A stretch of 64,000 nucleotides of DNA from positions 1,861-65,860 of the forward strand of contig CAXTCR010000001.1 of NCBI GenBank assembly GCA_964242555.1. The letters are read 5' to 3'. Each line of letters begins with the position of its first letter. Position 1 is the first letter of the stretch. The position numbers and the translations under genes are program-made. The stretch comes from an uncultured Ktedonobacteraceae bacterium. GTDB taxonomy: Bacteria > Chloroflexota > Ktedonobacteria > Ktedonobacterales > Ktedonobacteraceae. The notes beneath the pieces are model-generated. The model did not search any database. It had not been told where the DNA came from and worked only from the letters and a program-made list of their open reading frames with translations. Positions 11,680-61,386 of the stretch are shown here, piece by piece.

Positions 11680-11810
11680 CGGTTTTTGCCTTTCGAGCTG
11701 CTTGAGAACATAGTAACGCTCATGTACAGAGTAGTATATAACACGCATGGGCACGTTCTAAAATGTGCAATTATACATATTTCTCAACCAATGCTACCAA
11801 TTCATCTACA

Positions 11811-19121: not shown

Positions 19122-20932
19122 ACTGTAATCAAGCGCGGTTATTGCTTGCGTCCTATCGTGAATTTGGGCAGAATAAAGCGGGTTCAATGGAGCTAGATGC
19201 GCATCTGGAAGAATGTGCATCGTGCAGGAACATTCTGGCGCAGTACAGCGTTATAGGTGAGCGCGTTCGCATGGTACCTTCGATAGAATCCGCTCCAGAC
19301 GCACATACAAAACTTATGCATGCACTCGCGGCAGAGCATGCACGTTTCCTACAACACGCGTCGAATGCGCAGGCATCATCGGCCTCGTCCGTGCCAGATT
19401 TCCTTAAGCCGTACATGAATGAACATGGGGATGAGAGACACACCGCACAACTCAGAGCCTTCTCTAGTGCCGAGACCGGCCCTCTGCCTGTTCTGCCTGC
19501 GAAACGCAAAAAGCGTGTAGCTCCAACGGGACAATTTGCCGTTCTTGGCCTCGCCGCAAGTTTCCTCATGATATTTTTAGTTGGCGGCCTTGTTTCTCTC
19601 CTGGTGTTGGCCAATCATGGAGTAAATAACAACTCAAATACGGTCATCTCCATTAAAAACCCATCCCTGATAGCGCCGATCAGTTATACGGCAGAGACAG
19701 CGTATTCACATATCGCGAGTGCTGTTGCTACTCCTGGACACGTGTTTTACTCGGCGTATAACGATGATGAGACCCAATGGATGATTGAGGGACTAAGTGG
19801 CACAACGCAGCACAGTGGTACAACAAAGAATGCTGTGAGTGTTCCACTTCTACAAAACAACAGTCAGAATCCACTGTTCGTGTTGGGAGCCTCGTCTCAA
19901 TGGGTCATCTGGCTACAGTTCGACACGCCACAAAACAAAGTTCAACATCACACTTCGAGCACTGCTTTTACACGCACATGGAGTTTGAATGCTCTATCGC
20001 TTCCATCCAATGGAGATGGACAATTTAGAAACGTGATGACGTTGCAACGCGGTACCTTCGATACCACAACAGCCCCTGACTGGGTTCGTACTCCTATCCA
20101 AGGCATCTCATTTATACAACAGGATACATTGCTTGTGGCATCGTTGGATGTGAAGGGTACGGCACAGCTTGTGCGCTACCAACTGGACACGCACGGGGGA
20201 ACAAGTTCTACGCTTATCGCAACGGCTACAAATGGACATGTACTTACCTCGCCCAGCGCAACGGAGGATGGGTCGCGCACATTCTGGTCTGAGGAATGGT
20301 TTACAGATAATCAACAGCCGCATAGTACGGTCTGGACACAGGAGCAAACGCAACAGCTAGTGCATCAGAGGGGCGCGTGGCGTCAGAGTGTCCAGGTGGA
20401 TAAGCATGTCTACGGTTCGGGCGATACATCGTTTCACCCACTCGTCATTAATGACACGCTTTTCTTGCTCAGTACAAGCGATGCGACTGCTCCAACACAA
20501 GGAACTCCAAACGCGGCAAGCAGCCCAACGGTGCAGGCCACGGCTACTTCTGTGCCACTGACACCCGTTATCGCACGCTTCACAACCGTGTATCCTACGC
20601 AGATTGACGAGTTTATACACGGCACCATTCTAGCTGTGCCGCTTTATGATGTAACGGCGCAATCGACAACGCTTTCAAGTGATAGCATGGCGGCGGCACC
20701 ACAAGCAGGAATGCGCTTCCTATTATGGCAGAGCGGTGCAGGCTATCAAATGTATGATGCGGTCGCTAAATCGACGGTGGAAGTGAAAGACAGTACAAAG
20801 GGTGCCTCGTTCCTGGAAGTTAATGGAGACTCGGCGGTATGGGTCGTGGACGCAGCAACTAGAACTGCGACAAAGAATACGACGAGTGTTCAGACTGCGA
20901 CATTCAACATGTTTAACTGGCCTTCGCAGTAG
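19118..20932 (+). CDS. Anti-sigma factor (zf-HC2) with single TM and large extracytoplasmic domain
   Basis: GTG start overlaps the sigma stop by 4 nt. It has the HLEECASCRNIL motif, the TM helix FAVLGLAASFLMIFLVGGLVSLLVLA and about 430 aa outside. Confidence 0.75.
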   Translation: MNCNQARLLLASYREFGQNKAGSMELDAHLEECASCRNILAQYSVIGERVRMVPSIESAPDAHTKLMHALAAEHARFLQHASNAQASSASSVPDFLKPYMNEHGDERHTAQLRAFSSAETGPLPVLPAKRKKRVAPTGQFAVLGLAASFLMIFLVGGLVSLLVLANHGVNNNSNTVISIKNPSLIAPISYTAETAYSHIASAVATPGHVFYSAYNDDETQWMIEGLSGTTQHSGTTKNAVSVPLLQNNSQNPLFVLGASSQWVIWLQFDTPQNKVQHHTSSTAFTRTWSLNALSLPSNGDGQFRNVMTLQRGTFDTTTAPDWVRTPIQGISFIQQDTLLVASLDVKGTAQLVRYQLDTHGGTSSTLIATATNGHVLTSPSATEDGSRTFWSEEWFTDNQQPHSTVWTQEQTQQLVHQRGAWRQSVQVDKHVYGSGDTSFHPLVINDTLFLLSTSDATAPTQGTPNAASSPTVQATATSVPLTPVIARFTTVYPTQIDEFIHGTILAVPLYDVTAQSTTLSSDSMAAAPQAGMRFLLWQSGAGYQMYDAVAKSTVEVKDSTKGASFLEVNGDSAVWVVDAATRTATKNTTSVQTATFNMFNWPSQ

Positions 20933-20936
20933 TCGA

Positions 20937-20990
20937 TAAGGAAAAGGAGCAGGCGAGCGACGTATGTCACTCACCTGCTCCTTTTCCTTA
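20937..20990. terminator. Hairpin between convergent genes (17-bp perfect stem)
   Basis: taaggaaaaggagcagg (20937-20953) pairs with cctgctccttttcctta (20974-20990). Confidence 0.5.
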
Positions 20991-20994
20991 GGCT

Positions 20995-21834
20995 TTATTT
21001 CCCCTCTTTGAGAATGTCGAGATGCATGTTATGGAGCTTATTCTCCATTTCTTGCATTTTTGTGAGCATGACATTCATCTCTAGCTCTGTCTTCACGTTT
21101 ACTTCATAATCGAGGTCTGCTTTGATACGATCTTTCGCGGACTGCCGGTTCTGGCTGATCAGAACGAAGATCGAGAGAAAGATAGCTTCGAGCGACACTG
21201 CCATGGTGAGAAACTGAAATGGATAGGGATCAAACTGAAAGCCTTTTGGACCAAGTGTATTGGCAACAATCCACACGACAAAAGCGATAAGGTTCATGAG
21301 GAGGAAGGGAATAGAGCCGCTGAAATCCGCAATTACGTCCGCGATACGCTGCCCAACCGAAAGTTGCACTTCCTCAGCCTCATTGGGGTTACGACTAACA
21401 CGGGTACGCAGGATATCATCGGTATGTTTGAGGCGTTGCCCCAGTTCCATCAGCACATCGAGGGCAGCATCAGGCCGACGCCGCAGGAAATCAAAGAACT
21501 CATTGCGGTCCAGTTCGAGCGTGACCACCTCGCCTTCGGAGGTCGCGCTGGCCGAGCGCGTCTCGCCGGCCAGCATTGATAGTTCGCCAAAGAATTTTCC
21601 TGGACCAAGCACGTCGAGCACGACCTTTTTGCCATCGCTATCGATGAGCCATATCTCCACCTCGCCACGCTCGATGATGCTAAACGCGCAGCCTAGATCG
21701 CCCGCCCTCATGACCTGCTGCCCCGGTTGGAAAACTCGTTCCGTCATGATTGAGCGGACCTCAGCCCGCTCATTATCATCCATATTCGAGAAAAGTGGTA
21801 TTTCAGCCAGAAGCTTTGTCGTTACTAGACTCAT
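20995..21834 (-). CDS. Cyclic-nucleotide-binding domain protein with C-terminal DUF1003-type membrane module
   Basis: cNMP-binding pattern (FGELSMLAGETRSASA) followed by PYPFQFLTMAVSLEAIFLSIFVLISQNR, which is typical of DUF1003. Confidence 0.75.
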   Translation of the reverse strand: MSLVTTKLLAEIPLFSNMDDNERAEVRSIMTERVFQPGQQVMRAGDLGCAFSIIERGEVEIWLIDSDGKKVVLDVLGPGKFFGELSMLAGETRSASATSEGEVVTLELDRNEFFDFLRRRPDAALDVLMELGQRLKHTDDILRTRVSRNPNEAEEVQLSVGQRIADVIADFSGSIPFLLMNLIAFVVWIVANTLGPKGFQFDPYPFQFLTMAVSLEAIFLSIFVLISQNRQSAKDRIKADLDYEVNVKTELEMNVMLTKMQEMENKLHNMHLDILKEGK

Positions 21835-23153: not shown

Positions 23154-24413
23154 TTACGAGACGGTCTCGCTGCTCTCAACGCGTGCTCCAACACCCTTGC
23201 GAAGCATGGGAACTTTGTCTAGCGCCTCCCATGGGGCATCGATGTCGGTGCGACCGAAGTGTCCAAATGCTGCAGTTGGCTGGTAGATGGGGCGACGCAG
23301 GTTCAGGGCTTGGATGATACCAGCGGGTCGCAGATCGAAGTGCTCATTGATGAGGCGAATAATCTCATCATCGGAGACTTTGCCTGTACCGAAGGTTTCG
23401 ACAAATAGAGAAAGCGGGCGAGCGACTCCAATGGCGTAAGAGACCTGGAGTTCGAGGCGGTCGGCAAGACCAGCAGCGACAATGTTCTTCGCGATATGAC
23501 GAGCCGCATATGCAGCGGAGCGGTCTACCTTTGTCGGATCTTTACCACTAAACGCACCGCCACCATGACGAGCCATGCCGCCGTAGGTGTCGACGATGAT
23601 CTTGCGTCCAGTGAGGCCGGCATCGCCCATTGGACCGCCAGTGACGAAGCGCCCTGTTGGGTTCACAAAAATCTTGGTCGACGAGTCAAGCAGGTTCGCG
23701 GGAATGACGGGCTTAATAACATGTTCCAGCACATCGGCATAAATCTGTTCCTGGTCGACATAGCTGGCATGCTGCGTCGAGATCACGACGGTATCGACGC
23801 GCACAGGTCGACCATGCTCATATTGTACCGTGACCTGACTCTTGCCATCTGGTCGCAGGTACGCGAGTGGACCGCTGCCCAGCCACGCTTTGCGGCGCTC
23901 AGTCGAGAGTTGACGTGTCAGTTTGTGTGCGAGGCTGATTGGCATAGGCATGTATTCGGGCGTCTCGTTGCAGGCAAAACCAATCATCATGCCCTGATCG
24001 CCTGCGCCGATTTGCTCAAGCTCATCATCGCTCAGATGCTTCAGGCCGCCGTCCTTCGTCTCCAGTGAACGGCTGACACCCATGTCGATGTCGGGCGACT
24101 GTTTGCCGATGGAGGTAACGATACCGCAGGTGCGGTAGTCAAAGCCGTATTCCGCATTGACATAGCCAACTTGCTCGATGGTTTTGCGCACGATGGCGGG
24201 CATATCTACCCAAGCCGAGGTTGTGATTTCGCCAGCAACCAGCACAAGACCAGTTGTGGTCGCGGTTTCACAGGCGACGCGTGCGACTGGGTCCTGGGTA
24301 AGAATAGCGTCCAGGATGGAATCCGAGATTTGATCGCATAGCTTATCGGGATGTCCTTCCGTCACCGATTCGCTTGTGAAAAACGATTTGGGACTTTCCA
24401 TAAAGTTACTCAA
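23154..24413 (-). CDS. metK: S-adenosylmethionine synthetase
   Basis: [24 protein letters not shown] and GGGAFSGKD motifs. TTG 24413 sits 8 nt after AAGGAG; ATG 24401 is the alternative start. The ORF-track extension to 24635 runs through the riboswitch and is not coding. Confidence 0.9.
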
Positions 24414-24446: not shown

Positions 24447-24550
24447 GTAGGGAGAATGTTCACGGCGTCCAAAACCGATGTATCGCGTATACAATGGCAC
24501 GTATAGCCAATGAATTGGCGTTTTGTGGACGCCGTGAACATTCTCCCTAC
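24447..24550 (-). repeat. 104-nt inverted repeat (24-bp perfect stem plus 5 bp) inside the metK 5' leader
   Basis: Arms 24447-24475 and 24520-24550 read directly, with a 2-nt bulge in the right arm and a loop of about 44 nt that has its own small stems. Confidence 0.6.
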
Positions 24551-24573: not shown

Positions 24574-24598
24574 AAAAAAACCCCTGCAATGTAGGGGT
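24574..24598 (-). terminator. Riboswitch expression-platform terminator (ACCCCU-ACAUUGC-AGGGGU-U6)
   Basis: 6-bp GC stem plus a U tract immediately 3' of the SAM-I aptamer. The 3' P1 strand AGGGG can alternatively pair with ACCCCU as an antiterminator. Confidence 0.7.
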
Positions 24599-24615: not shown

Positions 24616-24740
24616 CCCCTCATCTTGCGAAACATAGCGTGCGATGTTTCACCGGAATTGGCACCCTTCCTGCTATGGTATTAGCAGATGGGTTGCCGGG
24701 CTTCGTCGGGCCGTTTCCCTCCACCTCTCTGGATGAGAGC
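24616..24740 (-). promoter_or_regulatory. SAM-I (S-box) riboswitch aptamer
   Basis: The - strand reads GCUCUCAUCCAGAGAGGUGGAGGGAAACGGCCCGACGAAGCCCGGCAACC...GGGUGCCAAUUCCGG...CAAGAUGAGGGG. This matches the conserved S-box core and P1 pairing, and it lies upstream of metK. Confidence 0.9.
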
Positions 24741-24800: not shown

Positions 24801-24830
24801 ATTCTATGATACGAGAGGGAGGGTTGTCAA
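24801..24830 (-). promoter_or_regulatory. Sigma-70-type promoter for the metK leader (TTGACA-18 nt-TAGAAT)
   Basis: -35 at 24825-24830 and -10 at 24801-24806 on the - strand, about 55 nt upstream of riboswitch P1. Confidence 0.55.
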
Positions 24831-24881
24831 TTCGGCAACAGTGCGGCTTGTCGTTGGTGACAAATCACACTGTTGCCGAAT
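24830..24881 (-). terminator. Hairpin downstream of ahcY (14-bp perfect stem, no U tract)
   Basis: attcggcaacagtg (24830-24843) pairs with cactgttgccgaat (24868-24881), 10 nt after the ahcY stop. Confidence 0.45.
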
Positions 24882-24890
24882 GTGTAGCTG

Positions 24891-26252
<1,362 letters not shown>

Positions 26253-35270: not shown

Positions 35271-36779
35271 ATGAATGTTTCTCTAGCAAGACAAACGATA
35301 CAAGATATATCAACTGATGCATTGATTGTATCAGTGGCCCGTAAAGCAGGCAAAGACGAACATGGTCTTGAAATGTCACCATATGCTAGCACAATAGACA
35401 CGCTTTTAGACGGTCTCATTAGTGCTTCATATACGGATGGAGAGTTCAAGGGCGGACTTGGTGAACTACTCACTATTCATTCAATGGGGCGAATGGCCAC
35501 AAAGCGGGTCATTGTAGCCGGTTTAGGCGCGCAAGACAAAGTTACTCCACAATCTCTGCGACGCGCAAGCGCGGTTGCCGCCCGACATGCACAGACCACA
35601 GGAGCACATTCCATCACGCTGGCATTGCAGGGCCTGGATAACGAAAACGATGTGCAGGCAGAGGTAGAAGGTGCATTGTTAGGTCTGTACACGTTTAAAA
35701 TGTACAAGCAGTCCGAGCAGAAGAGCAACGGCAAAGGCGTCTCGCAACTTCGCGTGTTGGCCAGGGACAAAGAAGATACAGTAAGCATCGAGCGGGCAAT
35801 TGAGGAGGCTCAGGTGCTGGCCGAGGCAACAAATTTCGCACGTAACCTTGTAAATGAACCACCGAATGTGCTCACACCAACGGAACTGGCAAACCGCGCG
35901 GTCAGTATGGCGAAACAATTTGGCCTGGAGTACGAGGTATTCGACAAGGACAAGATTACGGAACTCGGCATGGGCGGTTTACTGGGAGTGACACAAGGAA
36001 GCGCAGAACCTCCACAGTTTGTTGTGCTGCGCTATCGTGGCGGAGAGGCATCGGAAAAGGGTATGGCACTTGTTGGGAAGGGCATTACCTTTGACACCGG
36101 TGGTATCTCGATCAAGCCAGCAGCAGGAATGGACGAGATGAAGGGGGACATGGGCGGTGCCGCAGCAGTGATTGGCGCGATGCAAGCGATTGCCATCTTG
36201 AAACCAAACATCAACGTTACGGGGCTTGTACCAACCTGTGAAAACATGGTGAGTGGAACAGCGTACCGGCCCGGAGATATTCTACACATCTCCAATGGCA
36301 AAACGATAGAGATTGTCAACACGGACGCAGAGGGACGCTTGATTCTGGCCGATGCGCTTTCATATGCTGTTAAGGAAGGTCTCTCACCCATTGTCGATCT
36401 TGCCACATTAACGGGGGGTGTCGTCATTGCGTTGGGGAACATCACAACGGGCGTGTTCAGCAACGATGAGCAGTTGACAGGGGACATTATCGCGGCTGGC
36501 CGCGTTACAGGCGAAAAGTTCTGGGCGATGCCAATGGACGAAGAATACGGCGAGGCAATCAAGAGCGATATCGCCGACATCAAGCAAACAGGCGGGCGGC
36601 CAGCATCGTCAATTACGGCGGCGAAAATCTTGGAGCAGTTCGTAGGCGACAGCAGATGGGCACATCTGGACATCGCGGGCACAAGCTATCTCGAAAGCAA
36701 AAAGCCCTATGCCGAGAAGGGTGCGACAGGCGTTGGCGTGCGTACGTTAGTGGAGCTTGCACGCAAGCTTGGGAAATAA
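35271..36779 (+). CDS. pepA: Leucyl aminopeptidase (M17)
   Basis: VGKGITFDTGG and NTDAEGRLILAD signatures; 502 aa. Confidence 0.9.
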   Translation: MNVSLARQTIQDISTDALIVSVARKAGKDEHGLEMSPYASTIDTLLDGLISASYTDGEFKGGLGELLTIHSMGRMATKRVIVAGLGAQDKVTPQSLRRASAVAARHAQTTGAHSITLALQGLDNENDVQAEVEGALLGLYTFKMYKQSEQKSNGKGVSQLRVLARDKEDTVSIERAIEEAQVLAEATNFARNLVNEPPNVLTPTELANRAVSMAKQFGLEYEVFDKDKITELGMGGLLGVTQGSAEPPQFVVLRYRGGEASEKGMALVGKGITFDTGGISIKPAAGMDEMKGDMGGAAAVIGAMQAIAILKPNINVTGLVPTCENMVSGTAYRPGDILHISNGKTIEIVNTDAEGRLILADALSYAVKEGLSPIVDLATLTGGVVIALGNITTGVFSNDEQLTGDIIAAGRVTGEKFWAMPMDEEYGEAIKSDIADIKQTGGRPASSITAAKILEQFVGDSRWAHLDIAGTSYLESKKPYAEKGATGVGVRTLVELARKLGK

Positions 36780-36780
36780 A

Positions 36781-36845
36781 ATAGCAGACGAAACACAAGA
36801 GGCGAGCGTGTCAACCACGCTCGCCTCTTGTGTTTCGTCTGCTAT
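36781..36845. terminator. Bidirectional long hairpin (30-bp perfect stem, 5-nt loop)
   Basis: Arms 36781-36810 and 36816-36845 are exact reverse complements. It starts 2 nt after the pepA TAA and contains the stop of the convergent DinB gene. Confidence 0.65.
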
Positions 36846-37393
36846 ACTCGGTTCTTTGATTGACGCATGATTTCGCGCAACTGCTCAAGGTGGGATTGGC
36901 CGTGCATAATGCCTAGCGCATGCGTGCCAACAGCATTCATCGGGCCGAAGTAGGGGATACGCGTCACTGTGACATCGAGGTGTGGCGCATCGGGCCACGC
37001 GTCAAGATACGCACGACACATGCGACGACTCTCTCGTAGACGAGCGTGCACCTGTTGGGCGTTGTGGATCGTTTGCCAGGGCACCTCGTTACGTAGCCGA
37101 CCGTCGAAGGCAATGCCTCGCGCCAGCACGGAGCCAATAGACGCAGTTTCCTCAAGTGTGGCGGTCAAGTGAACAATAACATGACCAAGGGTATATGCTT
37201 CTTCGTTCGGGTCCTTTAACTCAGGATCGTGAGGAACGAATGTTGCGCCCATATCAGTTACCCCTGAGATAATGGACTCAACTGTATCGAAAAGGTCATC
37301 TGTAGCTTTATAAAGGTCTTTGTGGGTGACATCGCGCACGGTGTCAGCGTAGCTAGCTTTTTGTGTGTAAAATGCCTCGAAATTGAGAGCCAT
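36842..37393 (-). CDS. DinB-superfamily metal-binding protein
   Basis: 183 aa from ATG 37393 (AGGAG 10 nt upstream). His triad pattern (GHVIVHLT ... HGQSHLEQL). Confidence 0.7.
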   Translation of the reverse strand: MALNFEAFYTQKASYADTVRDVTHKDLYKATDDLFDTVESIISGVTDMGATFVPHDPELKDPNEEAYTLGHVIVHLTATLEETASIGSVLARGIAFDGRLRNEVPWQTIHNAQQVHARLRESRRMCRAYLDAWPDAPHLDVTVTRIPYFGPMNAVGTHALGIMHGQSHLEQLREIMRQSKNRV

Positions 37394-37632
37394 GAGGTAA
37401 AAACTCCTACTATGTACAACTGTCTTTTTATAAGATACCACAAAAAAGAATGCTACTTCTATTTGTATGGTTTTATTTGACATTATCAGTACAATCAAAG
37501 AAATGGTTAATTTTGAACATGTATTCTTATTTTATTTAATGAATACTATTCCGTCTATATAGATGAAAATTTTATCTGCTCGTTACCACGGCACTTCTAT
37601 TCTACCCGTCCATGGTGTGCTATACTTTCTCT

Positions 37633-38340: not shown

Positions 38341-39213
38341 GTGAAGTTTTCCCTGGAGGCCTTAATGAACTTATTTCAAAAGCAAGCCCAACTCAACCAA
38401 CTCTTCACACAGAGTCCCGTCAATGCGGCCTATCTCGCAGGTTCTCTCAGTACCCGGACCTCTTTTGGACACCTCAGCGACGTGGATATTGCTATTCTCC
38501 TGACCGACTCTATCAAAGCCGACCAATTCCTGGACTACCAATTGTACTTCTTCAGTGAACTGGCAAAGCGGTTAGAGTCGGACACCATCGACGTAGTGAT
38601 TTTGAATCAGGCATCGCTACTGCTCAAACTTCAAGTGATCAAATATGGACAAATCCTGTTTACGCGCAATGAGAAACAGCGTGTTTCATTTGAGTCTAAA
38701 GCGGTCATGGATTACCTGGACTTTAAGAAGTTTGATGAGATTCAGAATCAGGCGTTGAGCCGGCGCTTGTATGGGCAAATCAATCCCGTTATACCTCTGG
38801 AAGGAGAGACGCTGCTACCGAAATTGGAGCAACTTCGCGATGCTGTCACTATTCTACATGAATTAGGCGATACAGACCGCGAAAGCTTTACAACGGACTA
38901 TCATGTGTACAGTATTGCGGAACGCTACCTGCAATTAGCGATTGAAGCATGCCTGCACATCTGTAGTACGATAGTAGCAGCCCTTGGCTTACGGCGGCCA
39001 GAGGGCTATCACGAGTTATTGAGTATTATCGCGGGTCAACAGATTATCCCCCGCTCGATAGCATTTCGTTTAGAAGTGCTCACTGACCTGCGCGATGCAT
39101 TGCTCTGCGACCCTGGTACATTGAGTCGTGATGTCCTCTATGAGCACGTCCAGTACCGGATCAGCGACCTCCAAGCATTCGCAGATGCAATTGAAGAGAA
39201 GTTACAACAATAA
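38341..39213 (+). CDS. Pol-beta-type nucleotidyltransferase fused to a HEPN/DUF86-like domain
   Basis: GS-x-SDVD NTase motif (AGSLSTRTSFGHLSDVDIAIL, DVVILN). The C-terminal four-helix region resembles DUF86, but the Rx4H site reads RDALLC. Confidence 0.65.
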   Translation: MKFSLEALMNLFQKQAQLNQLFTQSPVNAAYLAGSLSTRTSFGHLSDVDIAILLTDSIKADQFLDYQLYFFSELAKRLESDTIDVVILNQASLLLKLQVIKYGQILFTRNEKQRVSFESKAVMDYLDFKKFDEIQNQALSRRLYGQINPVIPLEGETLLPKLEQLRDAVTILHELGDTDRESFTTDYHVYSIAERYLQLAIEACLHICSTIVAALGLRRPEGYHELLSIIAGQQIIPRSIAFRLEVLTDLRDALLCDPGTLSRDVLYEHVQYRISDLQAFADAIEEKLQQ

Positions 39214-39250
39214 AAGAATGCCTTGGGCTAAATTGCCCAGGCATTCTTTT
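39212..39250. terminator. Bidirectional intrinsic terminator (A-tract, 14-bp stem, T-tract)
   Basis: aaaagaatgccttgggc / gcccaggcattctttt with one bulge, located between convergent stops. Confidence 0.65.
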
Positions 39251-39253
39251 ATT

Positions 39254-40732
39254 TTAGCCCATGACCTCTTCGCGTTCGCGAATAGCATTGGCTTGCTGTC
39301 TGGCTTCATCGGCCTCTGCCGTACGACCGGTTTCACGATAGATTTGCTCGAGCGTCTCATAGGCGAGAAGCATAGAAGGATCCATCGAGATGGCCTGTTG
39401 AGCGGCATCAATCGCCTCGTCGTAACGTTTAGCTTCGCGCAGGGTATCGGCAAGATCGTTATAGTAGTCGACGTTTAACGGGTCGCTGTCGATGGCGTTC
39501 TGGTAGTTCTCGATAGCCTCGTCGTAGCGTCCAAGGGCATCATACGCGCTGGCAAGCTGGTAGTAGCCTTCGGGATCATCCTCTGAACGCTCGAGCAGTG
39601 CATTGGCGGTCTCGATAGCCTTGTCATGCTGTCCAAGTGCATTGTAGGTATCGGCGAGACCTGCATAAGCGGCGGCGATATCATCGGACTGCAGTTCATC
39701 AGAACGCTCAATTAAGCCTTGATAGGCGGTCAAAGCTTCTTCGTAACGTTCGGCCTCGAGGTACGCTTCAGCGAGGCTAAAGCGTGCGGTAATACGCTGT
39801 GGGTCAATTTGGATCGCGTGGACATACGCATCAATCGCTTCGCTCGTGTTATTTTGCACGGAGAGCCACGTGCCGAGATGCTCCCATGCCTCGGCGTCTT
39901 CAGGGTCAATCGCAACGATACGGCGGTAGGCTTCTACCGCTTGATCGCGTTCACCCATTTGCTCATAGACGGCGGCCAGCATATCGTAACCAGTACGTCC
40001 CTCGGGGTCAAGCGAGAGCATTTGATTGGCGACCGAAAGCGCGTCATCGTACCTGCGCATATCGAGGTAGATACTGGCGAGTTCAGCGTAGCGTGTGGGA
40101 TCGGCGGGATCGGCATCAACGCGCCGCTCCTGCTCCATCAAACGACGCTGTTGATCGTTGACGCGCTCACGCACATCGCGCAGGTTGTCGGCAGCGACGG
40201 TATTGTCCGGATTGAGAATAAGTGTTTGGCGATAGGCTTGAATGGCATCCTGATACAGGTTCTGCGTGCGATAGGCATCGCCAATGCTCAGGTATAGCTC
40301 ATCGTTCTCAGGATCAATCTCCTGAGCCAGTTGGAAGGTTTCCAGTGAGTCCTCGTACAGGCCAAGCTCGCCGTACAAATTGCCAAGATTAATGTAGGCA
40401 TCAAGCAGTTGAGGATCGAGATCGATTGCACGTCGATAGCCCGCGACCGCGAATTCTGTGTCGCCAAGATATTGCTGCGCGAGGGCGAGATTATAGCGGG
40501 CGCGTGCGTTTTCAGGATCAAGAGCTACTGCTTGCTCGAATGCTTCGGCGGCAGTGTCGTAGTCTCCCTGTTCGGCAGCCGAGTTGCCGCGATCGGTTAA
40601 TTCCTGCTCGGTTGGTTGACGGTTCGCTTCTTGCATTTCCTGGCGACTCACAAAGTGAACCGGTGCGGTAGTATTCTCGGCGGGTGTTTCCGCGGTGTTC
40701 TCCGTGTTTTCTGTATCCTGTATATCAGCCAT
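39254..40732 (-). CDS. TPR-repeat protein
   Basis: About 12 tandem 34-aa TPR units (A..Y..AL.LDP.N pattern) after an acidic N-terminus. ATG 40732 has AGGAG upstream. Confidence 0.85.
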   Translation of the reverse strand: MADIQDTENTENTAETPAENTTAPVHFVSRQEMQEANRQPTEQELTDRGNSAAEQGDYDTAAEAFEQAVALDPENARARYNLALAQQYLGDTEFAVAGYRRAIDLDPQLLDAYINLGNLYGELGLYEDSLETFQLAQEIDPENDELYLSIGDAYRTQNLYQDAIQAYRQTLILNPDNTVAADNLRDVRERVNDQQRRLMEQERRVDADPADPTRYAELASIYLDMRRYDDALSVANQMLSLDPEGRTGYDMLAAVYEQMGERDQAVEAYRRIVAIDPEDAEAWEHLGTWLSVQNNTSEAIDAYVHAIQIDPQRITARFSLAEAYLEAERYEEALTAYQGLIERSDELQSDDIAAAYAGLADTYNALGQHDKAIETANALLERSEDDPEGYYQLASAYDALGRYDEAIENYQNAIDSDPLNVDYYNDLADTLREAKRYDEAIDAAQQAISMDPSMLLAYETLEQIYRETGRTAEADEARQQANAIREREEVMG

Positions 40733-40886
40733 AAGATATTTCACTCCTAAGTATGTACGGTAGTATCGTGTGCAAGTATTGAAAACAGTTCTCGCGTAGT
40801 ATAACACAGTCCGTTTAGGCATAACACAATCAATTCTCAATTATTCCGACATGTACATACTAGAACAAATGAGAATGGAAGTCTTA

Positions 40887-47309: not shown

Positions 47310-48899
47310 GTGAAAACAAGTATCCAGGTTGTTTGGTATAAACGCGATCTGCGCATCTCTGATGCAGCACCCTTATATGCAGCGGCACAGCACGGTCCCG
47401 TTCTTCCACTTTATATTGTCGAACCCTCACTTATACACGCTCAGGACTTTGACCCAGCACATTGGACATTTATTCGGCAGAGTCTTGAGGTTTTACGTAC
47501 AGAGCTTGCCGCCCTTGGACAACCACTTCTTGTGCGTGTTGGTGAGGTTGTCGACGTGCTGCAAGCACTTGCAGACGAATTTTCCATAGATGTGCTGTGG
47601 TCCCATGAAGAAACGGGCAATTGGCAGACCTACCAGCGTGATATTGCAGTAAGACGGTGGGCAAAAGCGCGTGGTATTCCCTGGCATGAGTTACCACATA
47701 CGGGAGTCATACGACGTTTGAAGAGTCGAGACGGGTGGGCGAATGCGTGGGAAGAGTATATGCGTTCACCGCTTGCCAAGAAGCCGGAGCGTCTACAACC
47801 AGTTCCGGAGATTGCAATTGGCGATATTCCTCCACACGAGAGCCTTGGACTACTTCCTGCGTCGCGTGTCCAGACCCAACAGGGCGGAGAACATGAGGCA
47901 CAACAGGTGCTTTTGAGTTTTCTGCGCGAGCGTGGATCTGGCTATCAGAAGGCAATGTCAAGTCCGGTTTCGGCGTGGGAGACATGTTCGCGCTTAAGTC
48001 CGCACCTTGCATGGGGAACGATCTCCCTGCGCTCGGTTTATCATGCGGTACTGAGGCATCAGGAAATACTTCGACAGACTGATGGGCGGGAACGGGCAGA
48101 AGTTGCAGGTCCTACGCTTAAAGATTTGAATGCTTTCCAGTCGCGGCTACACTGGCGAAGTCATTTCATGCAGAAGCTAGAGGACGAGCCACGTATCGAA
48201 TTTGAGAATTTCAATACTGCCTACGATGGGTTACGCGAAAACGAGTTTAACCGTGAATGGTTTGAGGCATGGTGTTGTGGGAAGACGGGCTATCCGCTGG
48301 TGGATGCGTGTATGCGAGCTGTGTGTGCGACAGGATATCTCAATTTCCGCATGCGGGCCATGCTTGTGTCTTTTGCGAGCTACGATCTGTGGTTGCACTG
48401 GCGAGAAACCGGGCTGTTCCTGGCACGTCAATGGCTCGACTATGAACCGGGGATACACTACAGTCAAATGCAAATGCAATCAGGCACAACAGGGATTAAC
48501 ACGGTGCGTATTTATGATCCGACGAAACAGGCGCACGATCAAGATCCTGAGGGTGTATTCATTCGTCAGTGGGTGCCAGAACTCGGAAACGTTCCGCAAG
48601 CGTACATTCATGAACCGTGGCATATGCCAACAGATGTACAACACACATATGGGTGTGTACTTGGGCGAGACTACCCACTCCCAATCGTTGACCACAAAAG
48701 TGCCGCACGAACAGCGAACAGCCACATTGCAGCATTAAGGCGCGAGAGAACGACAAAAGAGAAGTCACGTTCAGTGCTCCTGCGACATGGAAGCCGAAAG
48801 GACGTGAGGCACCGGCTCAAAGCGCTGAGAGAGGGTGAGGTGCAACAGCCACCCCTCGATGCTTCATGGCTGGACGAGAGCACGGATGACGTTAGCTAA
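47310..48899 (+). CDS. Cryptochrome/photolyase family protein
   Basis: VVWYKRDLRISD N-terminus and an FAD-binding domain (RLSPHLAWGTIS, TGYPLVDACMR, NFRMRAMLVSF, DPEGVFIRQWVPEL). Confidence 0.85.
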   Translation: MKTSIQVVWYKRDLRISDAAPLYAAAQHGPVLPLYIVEPSLIHAQDFDPAHWTFIRQSLEVLRTELAALGQPLLVRVGEVVDVLQALADEFSIDVLWSHEETGNWQTYQRDIAVRRWAKARGIPWHELPHTGVIRRLKSRDGWANAWEEYMRSPLAKKPERLQPVPEIAIGDIPPHESLGLLPASRVQTQQGGEHEAQQVLLSFLRERGSGYQKAMSSPVSAWETCSRLSPHLAWGTISLRSVYHAVLRHQEILRQTDGRERAEVAGPTLKDLNAFQSRLHWRSHFMQKLEDEPRIEFENFNTAYDGLRENEFNREWFEAWCCGKTGYPLVDACMRAVCATGYLNFRMRAMLVSFASYDLWLHWRETGLFLARQWLDYEPGIHYSQMQMQSGTTGINTVRIYDPTKQAHDQDPEGVFIRQWVPELGNVPQAYIHEPWHMPTDVQHTYGCVLGRDYPLPIVDHKSAARTANSHIAALRRERTTKEKSRSVLLRHGSRKDVRHRLKALREGEVQQPPLDASWLDESTDDVS

Positions 48900-48920: not shown

Positions 48921-48997
48921 AACTGGACACCCACAACGCACTACCCTCTCGTACACGAAGCGTGCATGAGAGGGTAGTGCGTTGTGGGTGTCCAGTT
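48921..48997. terminator. Bidirectional long hairpin (30-bp perfect stem)
   Basis: Arms 48921-48950 and 48968-48997 are exact reverse complements. It lies between convergent stops at 48899 and 49033. Confidence 0.6.
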
Positions 48998-49032: not shown

Positions 49033-49692
49033 TTAGTTCGTGAAATCCTCTGTCACCCAGACGATGCCTTGTGAGTCGATGACGATACCGATACCTATTT
49101 GATGAAAGGCGGTGCTGAGCAGATTTTTGCGATGCCCGTCATTGGGTGGCTGCTCCTTGAGCATTCCTCCCTCGATGTTTTGCTGCACAGCCGTCCATGC
49201 ATCGGGATACGGTGATGTATAGCCGGCATTTTCACCGCAGGTCATCCACTGAATGCCCTCGTTTGTGATGCGCTGAGCCAGATTTGGTTCGCCCGGACAT
49301 TGATGTGAGAGGCCACAGCCAGGCTGTGTCATAGCCACACTATGCTGGCGTGCGCCATTAGAGAGCGTGGTATTCAGAGTATATGCTGGTAAGCCTTGGG
49401 CAGCACGATCAGCATTAATTTGCGCAAACAGCTTTTGCTCTAGCTGCGCTGTAGGGGATGTAGTACCCCCGTTGCCAGTTGTACCACCTCCACCAGTAGT
49501 CTTGGTCGGGGTGGGCTTGACTTTTGTAGGAGTCTTGGTCGGCGTCGTCTTCGCTATAGGGTGATGCGTCTGCTGAGGCTTTTTGTGTGCTCCTTTGGCC
49601 CAGGTTGAAAGTGGCTGGACAGTAACAAGAGCAAGAGCAATACTAAGCAACAAGAGCATACTCGTTACTATAATGAGAACAGTCCTCTTCAT
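49033..49692 (-). CDS. Secreted CAP/SCP (YkwD-like) domain protein
   Basis: Signal peptide, Thr/Pro/Lys-rich linker and a CAP pattern (INADRAAQGLP, GHRKNLLSTAFHQIGIGIV). Confidence 0.8.
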   Translation of the reverse strand: MKRTVLIIVTSMLLLLSIALALVTVQPLSTWAKGAHKKPQQTHHPIAKTTPTKTPTKVKPTPTKTTGGGGTTGNGGTTSPTAQLEQKLFAQINADRAAQGLPAYTLNTTLSNGARQHSVAMTQPGCGLSHQCPGEPNLAQRITNEGIQWMTCGENAGYTSPYPDAWTAVQQNIEGGMLKEQPPNDGHRKNLLSTAFHQIGIGIVIDSQGIVWVTEDFTN

Positions 49693-49804: not shown

Positions 49805-49844
49805 TGGCTATTTGTGGTTGAGATATCTCAACCACAAATAGCCA
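49805..49844. repeat. 40-nt perfect palindrome
   Basis: tggctatttgtggttgagat|atctcaaccacaaatagcca read directly. It lies between the trxA terminator and the CAP gene start. Confidence 0.6.
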
Positions 49845-49952: not shown

Positions 49953-49996
49953 TAAAAAGCGCCTCCTTCATTAGTTTGTACACTAGTGAAGGAGGC
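49953..49996 (-). terminator. Intrinsic terminator of trxA
   Basis: GCCUCCUUCA / UGAAGGAGGC 10-bp stem followed by GCUUUUUAUU on the - strand. Confidence 0.7.
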
Positions 49997-50017
49997 ATCT
50001 TTTGTATATCACAGACG

Positions 50018-50368
50018 TTACTTGGCGGCAGAATGCTGAGCCAGCACACGGTCGATCTCACCCTTGAGGCGGGTTGGATGAGGACCAACAAGACGACCGA
50101 TAACCTTGCCATCCTGGAAGATCATCAAGGTTGGAATGGCCTGAATACCAAGCTGTCCTGGTGTGTTGTTATGCTCGTCAATATCCATCTTTGCGAACTG
50201 GAGTTTGCCCTGATACTCTTCGCTCAAGCGCTCATAAACGGGAGCAATTGCTCTACAGGGTCCGCACCAAGCAGCCCAGAAATCGACGATTACAGGAGTA
50301 TCGGACTTGAGCACTTTCTGCTCAAAATCGGAGTCGCCAACATGAAACAGGTTTGCGTGTGTAGTCAT
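50018..50368 (-). CDS. trxA: Thioredoxin
   Basis: WCGPC active site (FWAAWCGPCRA). 116 aa from ATG 50368. Confidence 0.9.
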   Translation of the reverse strand: MTTHANLFHVGDSDFEQKVLKSDTPVIVDFWAAWCGPCRAIAPVYERLSEEYQGKLQFAKMDIDEHNNTPGQLGIQAIPTLMIFQDGKVIGRLVGPHPTRLKGEIDRVLAQHSAAK

Positions 50369-50499
50369 AGTATATTTTCTCTCTTTCAAATGCAAGTCGT
50401 GTATCTCGTTTCCTGGTAGCACGTTTGCTAACGCCAAGATATGGTTGCTTCACTAGAGAAAACACGGACTTGCAGTATTCTATTCCATGTCGCCGCGAT

Positions 50500-52411: not shown

Positions 52412-52672
52412 TTATTTATTAAAGAAGTCCGCATTTATCTTAATGAAGCTTTTCCACTCTTCGGGAACTGCTGACTCCTCGAAAATAGCGGTTACAGGGC
52501 AAGCAGGCTCACATGCCCCACAGTCGATGCACTCATCAGGATTAATGAAGAGCTGCTCCGCTGTATCAAACCCTTCTTCACCTTGCGATGGATGGATACA
52601 ATCAACGGGACAAACATCTACGCAAGAGGCGTCTTTAACACCGATACAGGGTTGAGTAATCACATATGTCAT
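52412..52672 (-). CDS. 7Fe ferredoxin ([3Fe-4S][4Fe-4S] type)
   Basis: Cys pattern C-x7-C-x3-CP followed by C-x2-C-x2-C-x3-CP. 86 aa from ATG 52672 (GGAGGA upstream). Confidence 0.85.
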   Translation of the reverse strand: MTYVITQPCIGVKDASCVDVCPVDCIHPSQGEEGFDTAEQLFINPDECIDCGACEPACPVTAIFEESAVPEEWKSFIKINADFFNK

Positions 52673-52794
52673 GAACTTGAAATCCTCCTCTAGACTCGCC
52701 AGCAAAAAATCGAGAACAGTTTGTAGAAACTGCTTTTGGCAACTTTAGTATAGAGGGTTGCATGAGCAATGTCAACGCTTGTGGTAAGCAAATT

Positions 52795-52874
52795 GAGAAT
52801 ACATTTCACCGGCGGCATACAAAAAGCACAACAGTTGTTGTGCTTTTTGTATGCCGCCGGTGAAATGTATTCTC
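52795..52874 (-). terminator. Long hairpin 5 nt after the aldehyde dehydrogenase stop (38-bp perfect stem, 4-nt loop)
   Basis: Arms 52795-52832 and 52837-52874 are exact reverse complements; no U tract. Confidence 0.6.
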
Positions 52875-52879: not shown

Positions 52880-54376
52880 TTACTGTGCATCACCAAAGAT
52901 GGTATAGTGCCAGCCCTTGTTTGGCTCGCCGGATAACTCGATCATGACATGCTTGATCTGCGTGTATTCGTCGAACGAGTACATCGACATATCCTTGCCG
53001 ATACCACTCTCTTTGTAGCCACCATGGGGCATTTCAGAGGTGAGCGGCAGGTGATCGTTGACCCAGACAGTACCAAACTTTAATGCTTTACTTGCACGCA
53101 TGGCCTTGTAGATATCGCGCGTCCAGACGGAGGCGGCAAGACCATAGACGACACCATTAGCCTTTGCGAGCGCCTCTTCCTCGGTCTTGAAGCGGCTCAC
53201 AAGAACGACGGGACCAAAGACCTCGTTTTGGACGATGCCAGCATCGTGGCGCTCCTCCGAAATCACGGTTGGCTCATAGAAAAAGCCTTGCTCAAAGCCC
53301 GAGATAGAAGCTCGTTTGCCTCCAATGAGAATATTCGCGCCTTCACGCAGGGCATGTTCGACGTGAGCCTCGACACTGTTGCGCTGGCGAGCAGAGATCA
53401 TTGGACCCATGTCAGTCGCTTCCTTTGAAGGATCGCCAACGCGAATTTGCTTGACCTTGTTCATGAATGTTTGCAGGAAGGTGTCGTAGATGCTGTCCTG
53501 CACATAGATACGGGTCGCAGCAGTGCAGTCCTGTCCACAGTTGACGTAACCACCGACAACAGCACCACTAGTCGCAGCATCCAGGTCTGCATCGTCGTAC
53601 ACGATAAAGGGAGCCTTACCACCAAGTTCAAGGTGAACGCGCTTGATTGTATCAGCAGCTGCCCGCATAACATACTTACCACTGCGCGTGCTACCTGTGA
53701 TCGAAACCATATTGACATCTCTATGGCTTACAAGGCTGGGTGCAATCTCAGGTCCATCAGTAATGATGTTAAGGACACCAGCAGGAATACCGGCTTCGAG
53801 CGCGAGTTCTCCGAGACGTAGGGCAGTCAGAGGTGTCTCAGGTGATGGCTTAAAGATAACGGTGTTACCAGCGGCAAGGGCAGGCCCAAGCTTCCAAGCT
53901 GCCATCATGAAGGGGTAGTTCCAGGGGGCAACCGAGGCGACCACGCCAACCGGTTCGCGACGAATGATGCTGGTATGCCCACCACTATACTCGCTCGATG
54001 CAGTACCTGCAAGGTGACGAGCCGCGCCCGCGAAGAAGTGCAAGTTATCAGCAGCAAACGGAATATCGCTGTCGCGTGCAAGTTTGATTGGTTTGCCGGT
54101 ATCTTGCGACTCCATCTCTGCAATTTCACCTGCATGCTCTTCAACTAGTGAAGCTAGTTTTTCGAGGATAGCTGCGCGTGCGCCGTGGGTTAAGCCAGTC
54201 CAGCGCCCATCATCAAAAGCAGCGCGCGCTGCTGCTACCGCACGATTCATATCATCCATCGTGCTCTCTGGCACCTCGGCAATTGTCTTGCCTGTCGCGG
54301 GATTGATATCCTCACTCGTTTTGCCTGTGCTACTACCGACGAGTTGTCCGTCAATCAGAAGTTTCAATTCGCTCAC
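52880..54376 (-). CDS. NAD-dependent aldehyde dehydrogenase (aminobutyraldehyde/betaine-aldehyde type)
   Basis: VHLELGGKAP and YVNCGQDCTAATR catalytic motifs. GTG 54376 has AAGGAA about 8 nt upstream. Confidence 0.9.
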   Translation of the reverse strand: MSELKLLIDGQLVGSSTGKTSEDINPATGKTIAEVPESTMDDMNRAVAAARAAFDDGRWTGLTHGARAAILEKLASLVEEHAGEIAEMESQDTGKPIKLARDSDIPFAADNLHFFAGAARHLAGTASSEYSGGHTSIIRREPVGVVASVAPWNYPFMMAAWKLGPALAAGNTVIFKPSPETPLTALRLGELALEAGIPAGVLNIITDGPEIAPSLVSHRDVNMVSITGSTRSGKYVMRAAADTIKRVHLELGGKAPFIVYDDADLDAATSGAVVGGYVNCGQDCTAATRIYVQDSIYDTFLQTFMNKVKQIRVGDPSKEATDMGPMISARQRNSVEAHVEHALREGANILIGGKRASISGFEQGFFYEPTVISEERHDAGIVQNEVFGPVVLVSRFKTEEEALAKANGVVYGLAASVWTRDIYKAMRASKALKFGTVWVNDHLPLTSEMPHGGYKESGIGKDMSMYSFDEYTQIKHVMIELSGEPNKGWHYTIFGDAQ

Positions 54377-54600
54377 TGTCTTTGTTCCTTTCGGATGCTT
54401 CAAAATGCACAACTTCGTGCAACAATAAGCTTTTCTTTTCGATATTCGTATTCTTTTCTTTCTTCGATACGAATACCATTTACAAATATGGCTGGTGCTG
54501 AATCTATCTTACCACATTTGGAAGGGGTATCTTCTTGCTTGTACTGGTGACACAGAGGCACAGATACATGCGTTCGCACACAACGCCGTAAAGAACTAGG

Positions 54601-54664
54601 GTGCTGCAAGGAAAAATACCTCGTTCATGCAAGGGTATGAACGAGGTATTTTTCCTTGCAGCAC
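54601..54664 (-). terminator. Long hairpin after the saccharopine-dehydrogenase-like gene (28-bp perfect stem)
   Basis: Arms 54601-54628 and 54637-54664 are exact reverse complements, 19 nt after the stop at 54683. Confidence 0.6.
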
Positions 54665-54682
54665 TCTAATCACTCATTATTT

Positions 54683-55871: not shown

Positions 55872-55945
55872 GGCCTAAGAGCGAATAAGGCAATGCTACA
55901 CATCGACATGTCGATGTGTAGCATTGCCTTATTCGCTCTTAGGCC
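55872..55945 (-). terminator. 74-nt perfect palindrome overlapping the aminotransferase stop codon
   Basis: The sequence 55872-55945 equals its own reverse complement (checked base by base). The TAA at 55939-55941 is inside the right arm. Confidence 0.6.
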
Positions 55946-60553: not shown

Positions 60554-60596
60554 AAAACAAACATCGCACCCCGATATGAGGTGCGATGTTTGTTTT
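60554..60596. terminator. Bidirectional intrinsic terminator (17-bp stem with flanking A/T runs)
   Basis: aaaacaaacatcgcacc / ggtgcgatgtttgtttt, located between convergent stops. Confidence 0.65.
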
Positions 60597-61246: not shown

Positions 61247-61386
61247 AGTATATTTCGATCTCTCTTTCAAAGATTGTTTATCTAATTTGGTAAGCTCCTT
61301 TTATGAAAGGTTGCTTACCTATTATTATCGTATCATAATTAACAAACAAATAACAAGCTACTAATATTTCCATAGCATAAGAAGAG

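Follow-up and report, generated by a model that had tools for sequence, protein, structure and literature searches.

The stretch of DNA analysed here (the window, 64,000 nucleotides, nt) derives from a soil bacterium of the family Ktedonobacteraceae (Chloroflexota) and carries a series of very long hairpins at the ends of its genes, exemplified by the one at 36781-36845 between the genes of an aminopeptidase and a DinB-family protein. An earlier note, made from the letters of the window alone, had listed seven such hairpins, and all seven were recovered where it had placed them, both by an inverted-repeat scan and by a scan for ungapped Watson-Crick stems (+1 per match, -2 per mismatch, loop of at most 20 nt). 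They contain 24-39 perfect base pairs (bp) and have fold energies of -45 to -70 kcal/mol, with z-scores of -12 to -18 for the RNA minimum free energy relative to dinucleotide shuffles. The frequency of hairpins, for which a comparison with shuffled controls had been proposed, is far above that in shuffled sequence: 13 hairpins in the window score at least 13, and 8 of these at least 20, whereas not one reached 13 in 20 dinucleotide shuffles of the window. The stop codons of the flanking open reading frames (ORFs) had been placed inside the arms or 2-19 nt away from them; stops within or near the arms are indeed present, but the measured range extends from 6 nt within the arms to 35 nt off.

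Several of the listed hairpins lie between convergent genes and have no strand assigned to them. The hairpin at 36781-36845 pairs over 30 perfect bp around a 5-nt loop (TCAAC; -58.9 kcal/mol, z -13.9) and occupies the 62-nt gap between a pepA-like gene for an M17 aminopeptidase (35271-36779, plus strand) and a convergent gene of the DinB family (36842-37498, minus strand), the TAG stop of which (36842-36844) lies within the 3' arm. Similarly, the hairpin at 10662-10727 (24 bp perfect, 30-nt arms at 93%; -44.6 kcal/mol) is found between an ORF of 99 amino acids (aa; 10368-10667, plus) and a convergent gene of the URO-D family (10726-11754, minus); the TAA stop of the former is contained in the 5' arm and the stop of the latter overlaps the final two bases of the 3' arm. 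The hairpin at 48921-48997, with 37-nt arms and 2 mismatches near the loop (-70 kcal/mol), separates a photolyase gene (47310-48899, plus) from a convergent CAP-domain gene (49033-49692, minus), and the one at 62017-62077 (30 bp, one mismatch; -48.6 kcal/mol) takes up the 63-nt gap between an ORF of 184 aa (61461-62015, plus) and a convergent ABC permease gene (62079-62966, minus). In fact, all of the real convergent junctions of the window (8/8) hold a hairpin that fills the gap, the gaps measuring 58, 58, 62, 62, 40, 133, 61 and 63 nt.

The other listed hairpins lie on the minus strand, where three consecutive genes, encoding a class-III aminotransferase (55939-57369), a saccharopine-dehydrogenase-like protein (54683-55849) and an aldehyde dehydrogenase (52880-54412), each end in a long hairpin. 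Between the first two genes lies a perfect palindrome of 74 nt (55872-55945; 37 bp, -67.5 kcal/mol), the 5' arm of which holds the TAA stop together with part of the last sense codon (GCC), while the next gene has its GGAG ribosome-binding site and its ATG (55849-55847) directly past the 3' arm. The hairpin at 54597-54668 (28 bp perfect, or 32 bp if one mismatch, A·C on the sense strand, is admitted; -55.1 kcal/mol) sits 14 nt past the stop of the saccharopine-dehydrogenase-like gene and has ATTTTTCC within its 3' arm. The one at 52795-52874, with 39 perfect bp and 100% complementarity (-70.4 kcal/mol), begins 5 nt past the stop of the aldehyde dehydrogenase gene; its 3' arm contains TTTTTGT right past the apical stem (GCACAACA/TGTTGTGC), and within ~20 nt past the hairpin there is a conserved promoter-like sequence, TTGACA-17-TATACT (52747-52775, minus), for a ferredoxin-like gene (52412-52705, minus).

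Occurrence and anatomy in the Ktedonobacterales

Long gene-end hairpins are a clade-wide feature of the Ktedonobacterales. The sample for this order consisted of the window and 47 fetched loci (811,527 bp; individual loci are denoted by L and a number) and contained 77 hairpins scoring at least 20, with perfect stems of up to 45 bp. No hairpin with such a score was found in either of the two control samples (~775 kb together), one of which comprised 33 loci (484,658 bp) of other Chloroflexota, Elusimicrobiota, Bathyarchaeia and others obtained in the same search, and the other the distant metagenome loci L125-L160 (~290 kb). The convergent junctions were also surveyed by folding, a procedure that is free of the bias of the hairpin scan towards perfect stems and that was restricted to pairs in which both genes encode at least 150 aa (42 junctions per group). 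The main stem reached at least 15 bp in 22, at least 20 bp in 18 and at least 25 bp in 14 of the 42 junctions of the Ktedonobacterales, compared to 2, 0 and 0 of the 42 junctions of the other taxa. The nearest relatives of the aldehyde dehydrogenase gene, which lies between two of the window hairpins, are from the Ktedonobacteraceae and the Ktedonobacterales (up to 93% protein identity) and include isolates of Ktedonobacter, Dictyobacter, Tengunoibacter and Ktedonosporobacter; the proteins of the window's nearest relatives are 86-93% identical. A metagenome scan with the aminopeptidase, in which the best relatives were 77% identical, served the analysis of positional conservation and provided one further loop flip (see below).

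On the basis of simple ORF calls, hairpins scoring at least 20 were located at 18/106 convergent, 44/424 tandem and 4/105 divergent junctions. The distance between the stop codon and the stem base has a median of 10 nt, and the stop lies inside an arm in about a tenth of the cases. The hairpins thus have the place and the stability (-45 to -70 kcal/mol) of an intrinsic terminator, a stable GC-containing stem-loop right after the gene. The long hairpins had been described as a class distinct from ordinary terminators. Their length is indeed well beyond the ordinary, but the separateness of the class is weakened, both by the distribution of the scores, which is broad (14 to 45), and by the presence of the two kinds at the same junctions in different genomes. 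Within this distribution the range 20-45 forms a wide shoulder rather than the tail of a steep fall. For instance, the junction at 60554-60596, where the window has a canonical terminator of 17 bp, has a hairpin of 37 bp in L005 and one of 40 bp in L041. Long and ordinary hairpins are therefore interchangeable in one slot.

A comparison of orthologous gene ends revealed hairpins that keep their place while their sequence changes. The order of the aminotransferase, saccharopine dehydrogenase and aldehyde dehydrogenase genes is conserved across the order, and a long hairpin is found ~10 nt past the aldehyde dehydrogenase stop in at least 11 related genomes, with stems of 19-33 bp versus 39 bp in the window. 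These hairpins can barely be aligned, and only the apical part is recognizably related (GCACAACA-AC-TGTTGTGC in the window, GGCAACA-AC-TGTTGCC in L005 and GGCACAAC-GAAT-GTTGTGCC in L006). At the junction of 36781-36845, L161 and L162 have a perfect core of 19 bp and an imperfect outer part; they share with the window the loop (TCAAC) and the base of the stem (ATAG/CTAT), which the DinB gene on the opposite strand fixes through its TAG stop. The same junction holds an unrelated perfect hairpin of 25 bp in L165, a perfect 28-bp hairpin followed by TTTTT in L081, a perfect 35-bp hairpin that takes in the last codons GGG AAA TAA in L089, and a pair of elements resembling repetitive extragenic palindromes (REPs) in L164.

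According to the earlier note no two of the hairpins share sequence, and this was borne out in the larger sample. In an all-against-all blastn comparison of the 85 hairpins scoring at least 18, 68 were singletons and several small clusters consisted of orthologous copies; the seven listed hairpins shared no sequence with each other or with the other 78 hairpins of the 811 kb, except for the orthologues of 55872-55945. In this sample the arms are thus not copies of a dispersed repeat such as a transposable element of the miniature inverted-repeat type (MITE). REPs, bacterial interspersed mosaic elements (BIMEs) and MITEs are marked by many copies with a consensus, which in REPs includes a conserved 5' GTAG motif and in MITEs goes with terminal repeats and a target-site duplication. 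Such multiple copies were not found, the window hairpins matching only their own orthologues in the 811-kb sample. In relatives of the organism, REP-like families (GTAGGGAC... pairs, GACCGCAAGGGTC cores and the TGTCATTCTGAGCGAAGCGAAGAATC family) are at times present in the very intergenic slots in question, and some long palindromes centre on such an element (e.g. L041 4411-4492). None of the seven listed hairpins belongs to these families, and GTAGGGAC is absent from the window.

With respect to base composition, the 5' arms of the 85 hairpins contain A, G, T and C at fractions of 0.29, 0.29, 0.22 and 0.20. The ten bp nearest to the loop are GC-rich, and farther out A is enriched in the 5' arm and T in the 3' arm. 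Whichever strand is read, purines prevail in the 5' arms (G+A 0.585; G exceeds C in 61/81 and A exceeds T in 52/80). A published model ties such asymmetry of the stem base pairs to template switching (PMC8794818).

The claim that most of the hairpins lack a U tract holds for the bases past the stem, where the T fraction in one-directional settings is ~0.25-0.3 and at least 5 T in 8 nt occur in only 8/48 hairpins. It needs qualification for the stems themselves. About a third of the hairpins have a T-rich run within the 3' arm, and in the window such a run is present in 52795-52874 (TGTTGTGC-TTTTTGT), 54597-54668 (ACGAGGT-ATTTTTCC) and 36781-36845 (CGCTCGCCTC-TTGTGTTT). To judge from the sequence, these hairpins look like an ordinary terminator core in which the U run became paired with an A run and which was then extended. 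At convergent junctions the flanks are moderately rich in A on the upstream side and in T on the downstream side, with clear tracts in some hairpins only, e.g. 60554-60596.

Concerted change of the two arms

The two arms of a hairpin change together, as became apparent from the alignment of orthologous regions that had been proposed as a check. When the palindrome at 55872-55945 was aligned over the window, L002, L041, L005 and L045, 21 of the 37 pairs had changed on both sides and none on one side only, with 97.8% of the cells being standard pairs, a value that was reached in 0/500 shuffles and that no slid control comes close to. Many of the double changes are transversions. Moreover, the orthologue in L045 has a 1-nt deletion in each arm at mirrored positions, and a synonymous difference in the last codon (GCC vs GCA) is mirrored in the far arm. 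Between L002 and L041, which differ at 27% of the 4-fold degenerate sites, the hairpin past the aminotransferase gene has 3 substitutions per arm, all of them mirrored. The window and its nearest relatives differ at ~55% of the 4-fold sites, which is near saturation (the aldehyde dehydrogenase codon alignments of L001 and L006 were out of frame and were left out), and the arms evolve more slowly than these sites. The idea that the arms evolve faster than neutral was dropped for that reason.

In addition to the mirrored changes we observed inversions. Five of the eight non-identical pairs of close orthologous hairpins fit better when one member is reversed, either in the loop or over the whole hairpin. 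Over 18.7 kb, the isolates Ktedonobacter robiniae and Ktedonobacter sp. SOSP1-85 differ by 2.2%, and for two of the three long hairpins that they share BLAST prefers the reverse orientation (1 vs 4 and 2 vs 5 mismatches); in the third the loop reads GAAT in one isolate and ATTC in the other, 4 nt are deleted, and changes are clustered in one arm. The three hairpins differ at 5/61, 4/59 and ~12/68 positions, versus the 2.2% of the surrounding DNA. Further flips were found between L041 and L047 (loop CATA/TATG) and between L093 and L122, where a 12-nt loop is the exact reverse complement and the rest is identical (100% once reversed).

A multi-base correction was seen as well. At a site where L112 and L088 have an imperfect stem in common, the stem of L130 is perfect (16 bp); the 3' arms agree, and in the 5' arm L130 departs from the other two at three places, one of them a deletion, each change raising the complementarity. 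Both the multi-base changes towards complementarity and the inversion of the loop or spacer between close relatives (5/8 informative pairs) are marks by which template switching is recognized. The mismatches that do occur show no preference for wobble pairs. Among the hairpins with a single sense strand there are 14 mismatches in 1455 pairs, 7 G·U and 7 A·C, and over all 85 hairpins 33/37 mismatches are of the transition type, G·T being about as frequent as A·C. Of the two options that the earlier note had put forward for the perfect pairing, template switching is thus supported, by the mirrored substitutions and 1-nt indels, the flips, the correction of a quasi-palindrome and the lack of a G·U preference. 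The other option, selection for long double-stranded RNA, is probably needed as well, given the tie to 3' ends, but by itself it does not readily account for the mirrored indels and the equal numbers of G·U and A·C.

A last pattern concerns the outer ends of the stems. Past the aldehyde dehydrogenase gene, the conserved promoter is preceded by a block that is itself conserved, TTCTCAA(A)TTTGATGC.ATTTGC. The palindromes of the window, L005 and L003 enter this block to unequal depths (TTCTC, TTCTCAAATTT and TCTCAATGTTGAT, respectively), and in each case the exact reverse complement of the entered part is found just past the stop codon. The palindromes of L045 and L006 stop short of the block and lack its complement. 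The pattern would fit a possible outward growth of the palindromes by copying of the flank.

Proposed function and maintenance

Taking the observations together, we consider it probable that the hairpins are terminators or 3'-end-protecting structures, often bidirectional, the arms of which are kept perfect, and possibly extended, by DNA template switching. The hairpins would take the slot of an intrinsic terminator, be it directly past a stop codon, at a junction of convergent genes or in the space that separates a gene end from the following promoter, and would there stop RNA polymerase, block 3'-to-5' exonucleases, or both; at a convergent junction one palindrome could serve both strands and thereby both genes. 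A long stem would presumably still fold while the terminating ribosome covers its first dozen bases, a property that matters here because the stops abut the stems or lie within them. During replication or repair the nascent strand may switch template inside the palindrome and copy one arm from the other. Such copying would erase mismatches and indels, would sometimes invert the loop or the whole hairpin, and might lengthen the palindrome on its outer side up to the point where the sequence is under constraint, as in a stop codon, in coding sequence, in a ribosome-binding site or in a promoter. It is the perfect Watson-Crick pairing on both strands, the mirrored indels, the correction, the flips and the lack of a wobble preference that argue for arm-to-arm copying at the DNA level. 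The bias towards 3' ends implies that selection is probably also needed, as a purely mutational process would not yield it. Selection and copying are not alternatives: copying would supply and repair the perfect stems, and selection or mere tolerance would restrict them to gene ends.

Several points weigh against this interpretation. The 7-9 nt U-rich tract that should follow directly past the stem of an intrinsic terminator was not found in most hairpins of one-directional settings, and it is their position from which termination or RNA protection is deduced. The palindrome at 55872-55945 lies inside a conserved operon in which no promoter precedes the next gene, and therefore cannot be a strong terminator. 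The hairpin scan is biased towards perfect stems, and in the fold survey only 6 of the 22 stems of at least 15 bp were fully perfect, with 22 G·U pairs in 602 and small irregularities, mostly at the stem periphery. Over a divergence of ~55% at 4-fold sites compensatory evolution under strong selection could also give many double changes, and the unequal depths to which the palindromes enter the conserved block could alternatively be read as the loss of an old outer stem in some genomes. Short-read assemblies could in principle mis-resolve the orientation of a loop; three of the flips are between isolate genomes. Finally, the data do not explain why this clade differs from others. Intercistronic REP elements are known to stabilise the upstream message, and for the palindrome at 55872-55945, which must allow read-through, partial termination or a similar stabilising effect on the upstream message is in our view the better explanation.

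The same observations bear on the alternatives. The hairpins could be shaped by selection on the RNA alone, as RNase III sites, exonuclease barriers or terminators that are independent of a U tract, with point mutation and purifying or compensatory selection and without any copying of DNA. Their confinement to the 3' ends of genes, the conservation of their position over ~55% divergence at 4-fold sites and the slower evolution of the arms are all in line with this explanation. Yet an RNA stem should tolerate G·U pairs, of which the sense strand has no more than A·C mismatches; the mirrored 1-nt indels and the three-change correction that includes a deletion are hard to obtain by independent mutations; and at a divergence of 2.2% the hairpins differ more than their surroundings, mostly by inversions. 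In one-directional settings, moreover, the antisense strand is presumably not under selection and nevertheless the pairing is Watson-Crick on both strands. We consider selection on the RNA alone unlikely. An origin as copies or relics of mobile palindromic elements (REP/BIME-like elements or MITEs) that insert at gene ends would account for the REP-like families in the very same slots of relatives and for the long palindromes with such an element at their centre. It fails to account for the uniqueness of the seven hairpins among the 85 of the 811 kb, orthologues of 55872-55945 aside, for the absence of GTAGGGAC from the window, and for the gradual divergence of alignable hairpins at one locus, which is how orthologues behave; a REP or MITE origin of the listed hairpins was therefore rejected and seems to us very improbable.

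A role of the palindromes as DNA, in the form of cruciforms, protein-binding sites or recombination sites such as the attC sites of integrons, has in its favour that the pairing is perfect on both strands and that unique sequences beside stop codons superficially resemble attC. However, attC sites depend on unpaired bases, and positive supercoiling between convergent genes disfavours the extrusion of cruciforms. The imperfect palindrome with conserved core sites and unpaired bases, and the cassette array beside an integrase, were not encountered: the pairing is perfect, the window hairpins share no arm sequence, no common end motif could be discerned by eye, the neighbours are housekeeping genes with an order that is conserved across the clade, and no integrase turned up in Pfam scans of the flanking genes. 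Considering this anatomy and gene context, attC-like sites and a cruciform function were rejected, and we give a role as DNA very little weight. It could also be argued that the hairpins are artefacts of assembly or sequencing, as short-read assemblies break at these sites or fill them with N or homopolymer (L001, L006, L047, L163 and L003). The same gene ends, however, carry hairpins in many independent assemblies, including contigs of 0.2-1.6 Mb, and in isolates (Ktedonobacter robiniae, Ktedonobacter sp. SOSP1-85, Dictyobacter kobayashii and Tengunoibacter tsumagoiensis), so that an artefact is next to inconceivable.

A bolder possibility, to which we attach a modest but real chance, is that the clade has a lineage-specific way of ending its transcripts, in which the palindromes are actively generated and renewed by a high rate of template switching or by a dedicated factor, and act as terminators or 3'-end caps that depend neither on a U tract nor on direction. 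If so, terminators in this lineage would evolve by copying instead of by point mutation, and the growth of palindromes would reshape stop codons and the last codons of genes.

The proposed combination of terminator-like function and template switching can be compared with known systems. Like intrinsic and bidirectional terminators, the hairpins form a stem-loop directly past the stop, with one symmetric hairpin per convergent pair, a 5' side that is A-rich and a 3' side that is T-rich, and in some hairpins of the clade a GC-rich apical stem followed by a T run. Unlike in those terminators, the stems measure 24-45 bp as opposed to 7-9 bp, mostly no U tract follows the stem, any T-rich run lies in the stem, where it is paired to the 5' arm, and one of the hairpins sits within an operon just before a ribosome-binding site. 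With REPs and BIMEs, as described for enterobacteria and pseudomonads, the hairpins share the location in 3' untranslated and intercistronic regions, and the possible effect on the stability of the upstream mRNA that REPs and BIMEs can have. REPs are multi-copy and conserved in sequence, whereas the hairpins are single-copy sequences that coexist in these genomes with REP-like families with GTAGGG... ends. Loop flips between close relatives are also typical of the hairpin-associated small inversions in the non-coding DNA of chloroplasts, where loops between short inverted repeats flip repeatedly and independently; to our knowledge, the hairpins involved have not been reported to be this long or to be present at most gene ends. 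Quasi-palindrome mutation is known from phage T4 and E. coli. The multi-base changes to complementarity, the mirrored changes and the loop inversions agree with the Ripley model of quasi-palindrome correction and template-switch mutation (PMC5941160, PMC8794818, PMC5453318), a process that has been described for short repeats and structural RNA genes, whereas in the present case its action seems to extend to arms of 24-45 bp at many gene ends in one bacterial class.

Published figures underline the difference in scale. Terminator stems average 7-9 bp in both E. coli and B. subtilis, and a stem of 15 bp was called extraordinary (PMC10325885). The TerR terminator of plasmid pLS20, which resists processive antitermination, likewise has an unusually long stem, and there the length is the functional feature, the sequence of stem and loop being irrelevant (PMC10325885); yet the TerR stem measures 15 bp and comes with a U tract, and TerR, located where a conjugation operon ends, is a single special case, whereas the present stems of 24-45 bp occur genome- and clade-wide. 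Template switching corrects and creates perfect inverted repeats (PMC5941160, PMC8794818); it has been put forward as the process that keeps the short inverted repeats of Proteobacteria perfect (PMC5941160) and by which RNA hairpins arise and are maintained (PMC8794818). The non-coding inverted repeats of E. coli have a mean arm length of 5.75 bp, and arms of at least 13 bp form a rare tail. Full-text literature searches returned no description of these hairpins in Ktedonobacteria, and the group goes unmentioned in the main text of a 2026 survey that covered the perfect inverted repeats of 118,019 genomes. Thus the components, terminator-like hairpins and maintenance by template switching, are known, and what is new is the scale, the restriction to a clade, the frequent absence of a U tract and the frequent flips.

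If confirmed, a whole bacterial class marks its gene ends with hairpins 3-5 times as long as the textbook terminator, usually without the U tract on which the textbook mechanism depends, and this bears on how RNA polymerase is stopped or 3' ends are formed outside the model organisms. It would also provide a clean natural system for the study of how template switching keeps, flips and possibly lengthens inverted repeats, with dozens of unique long palindromes that have orthologues in many genomes. On the practical side, these sites will escape any terminator predictor that was tuned to short stems and U tracts, short-read assemblies break there, and covariation in alignments of these sites should not be read as proof of selection on RNA structure.

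Additional hairpins, repeat families and leader elements

The window contains further hairpins that were absent from the earlier list. The hairpin at 20937-20990 (no strand assigned; 25 bp, 2 mismatches; -42.1 kcal/mol) fills the gap between the convergent genes at 19118-20932 (plus) and 20995-21834 (minus, cNMP-binding/DUF1003). The one at 24830-24881 (minus; 23 bp, 3 mismatches; -34.5 kcal/mol) is located directly past the stop of the S-adenosylhomocysteine hydrolase gene (24891-26210, minus) and directly before a TTGACA promoter-like box. Strong promoter-like sites are found 0-20 nt past gene-end hairpins at 52747-52775 (see above) and at 24813-24841 (minus, TTGACA...TATCAT), a tight packing of terminator and promoter. 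A perfect palindrome of 20 bp with GATATC at its centre (49805-49844, no strand assigned; -31.2 kcal/mol) lies, when viewed on the minus strand, upstream of the CAP-domain gene and downstream of the gene at 50018-50437, past the terminator-like hairpin (49954-50003) that belongs to the latter.

An example of the imperfect version is found at ~2243-2311, the eighth convergent junction (1639-2250, plus, and 2309-4402, minus), where ~26 bp with a mismatch and a bulge give -30 kcal/mol and a z-score of -4.8. The hairpins at two other convergent junctions are shorter. At 39209-39253, between the genes at 38341-39213 (plus) and 39254-40840 (minus), the stem is 15-18 bp with A/T-rich flanks, and at 60554-60596, between those at 59530-60546 (plus) and 60608-61270 (minus), 17 perfect bp with an A tract and a T tract have the canonical shape of a bidirectional terminator (like 2243-2311, neither has a strand assigned). 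The ORF at 38341-39213 combines the domains of a Pol-beta-type nucleotidyltransferase and a HepT-like RNase and resembles a fused MNT/HepT toxin-antitoxin pair.

The REP-like elements mentioned above include a family of inverted pairs that start with GTAGGGA(C), have in common a motif such as ...ACGGCGTCC and are spaced 18-60 nt apart. A 5' GTAG beside a hairpin is the hallmark of REPs that are recognised by RAYT (REP-associated tyrosine) transposases. Copies of the family were found in the window (24447-24550, minus) and in L164 (~5555-5650), L005 (9801-9874), L006 (13963-14094), L011 (6431-6508), L003 and L083/L088. The S-adenosylmethionine synthetase gene has the window copy (arms of 28 nt, spacer of 48 nt) in its 5' leader, where it follows the riboswitch terminator and precedes the ribosome-binding site. 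A second family of dispersed palindromes, TGTCATTCTGAGCGMAGCGAAGAATCTC..., occurs in several Ktedonobacterales genomes, at L021 10134-10199, L033 2214-2281, L038 9749-9829 and L046 9688-9756, with additional copies in L046 (intergenic) and L113.

Short-read metagenome assemblies break, or carry runs of N or homopolymer junk, exactly at hairpin or REP sites. This was seen in L001 (~1660-1900 and the contig end at 10242-10317), L003 (1-32), L006 (~8420-8470 and ~9700-9860), L047 (~1790-1800) and at the contig end of L163. Long inverted repeats probably fragment the assemblies of this clade.

A search of the window with Rfam returned a SAM (S-adenosylmethionine, S-box) riboswitch only (24617-24739, minus; 73.6 bits), upstream of the S-adenosylmethionine synthetase gene (~23154-24401, minus); the S-adenosylhomocysteine hydrolase gene lies just upstream of the riboswitch. 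Its terminator (~24574-24597, minus) is canonical, with a short CCCCT...AGGGG stem followed by T7, which shows that ordinary terminators with a U tract are in use in this organism as well.

The leader of the aldehyde dehydrogenase gene contains a conserved inverted repeat, (G)ATATTCGTAT ... ATACGAATATC, at ~54434-54471 (minus) in the window and at the same place in L001, L002, L003, L005, L006, L041, L045 and L047. It lies downstream of a conserved ATGTG(G/A)TAAGATA box, has the appearance of an operator or of an RNA element of the leader, and differs from the gene-end hairpins in that its sequence is conserved.

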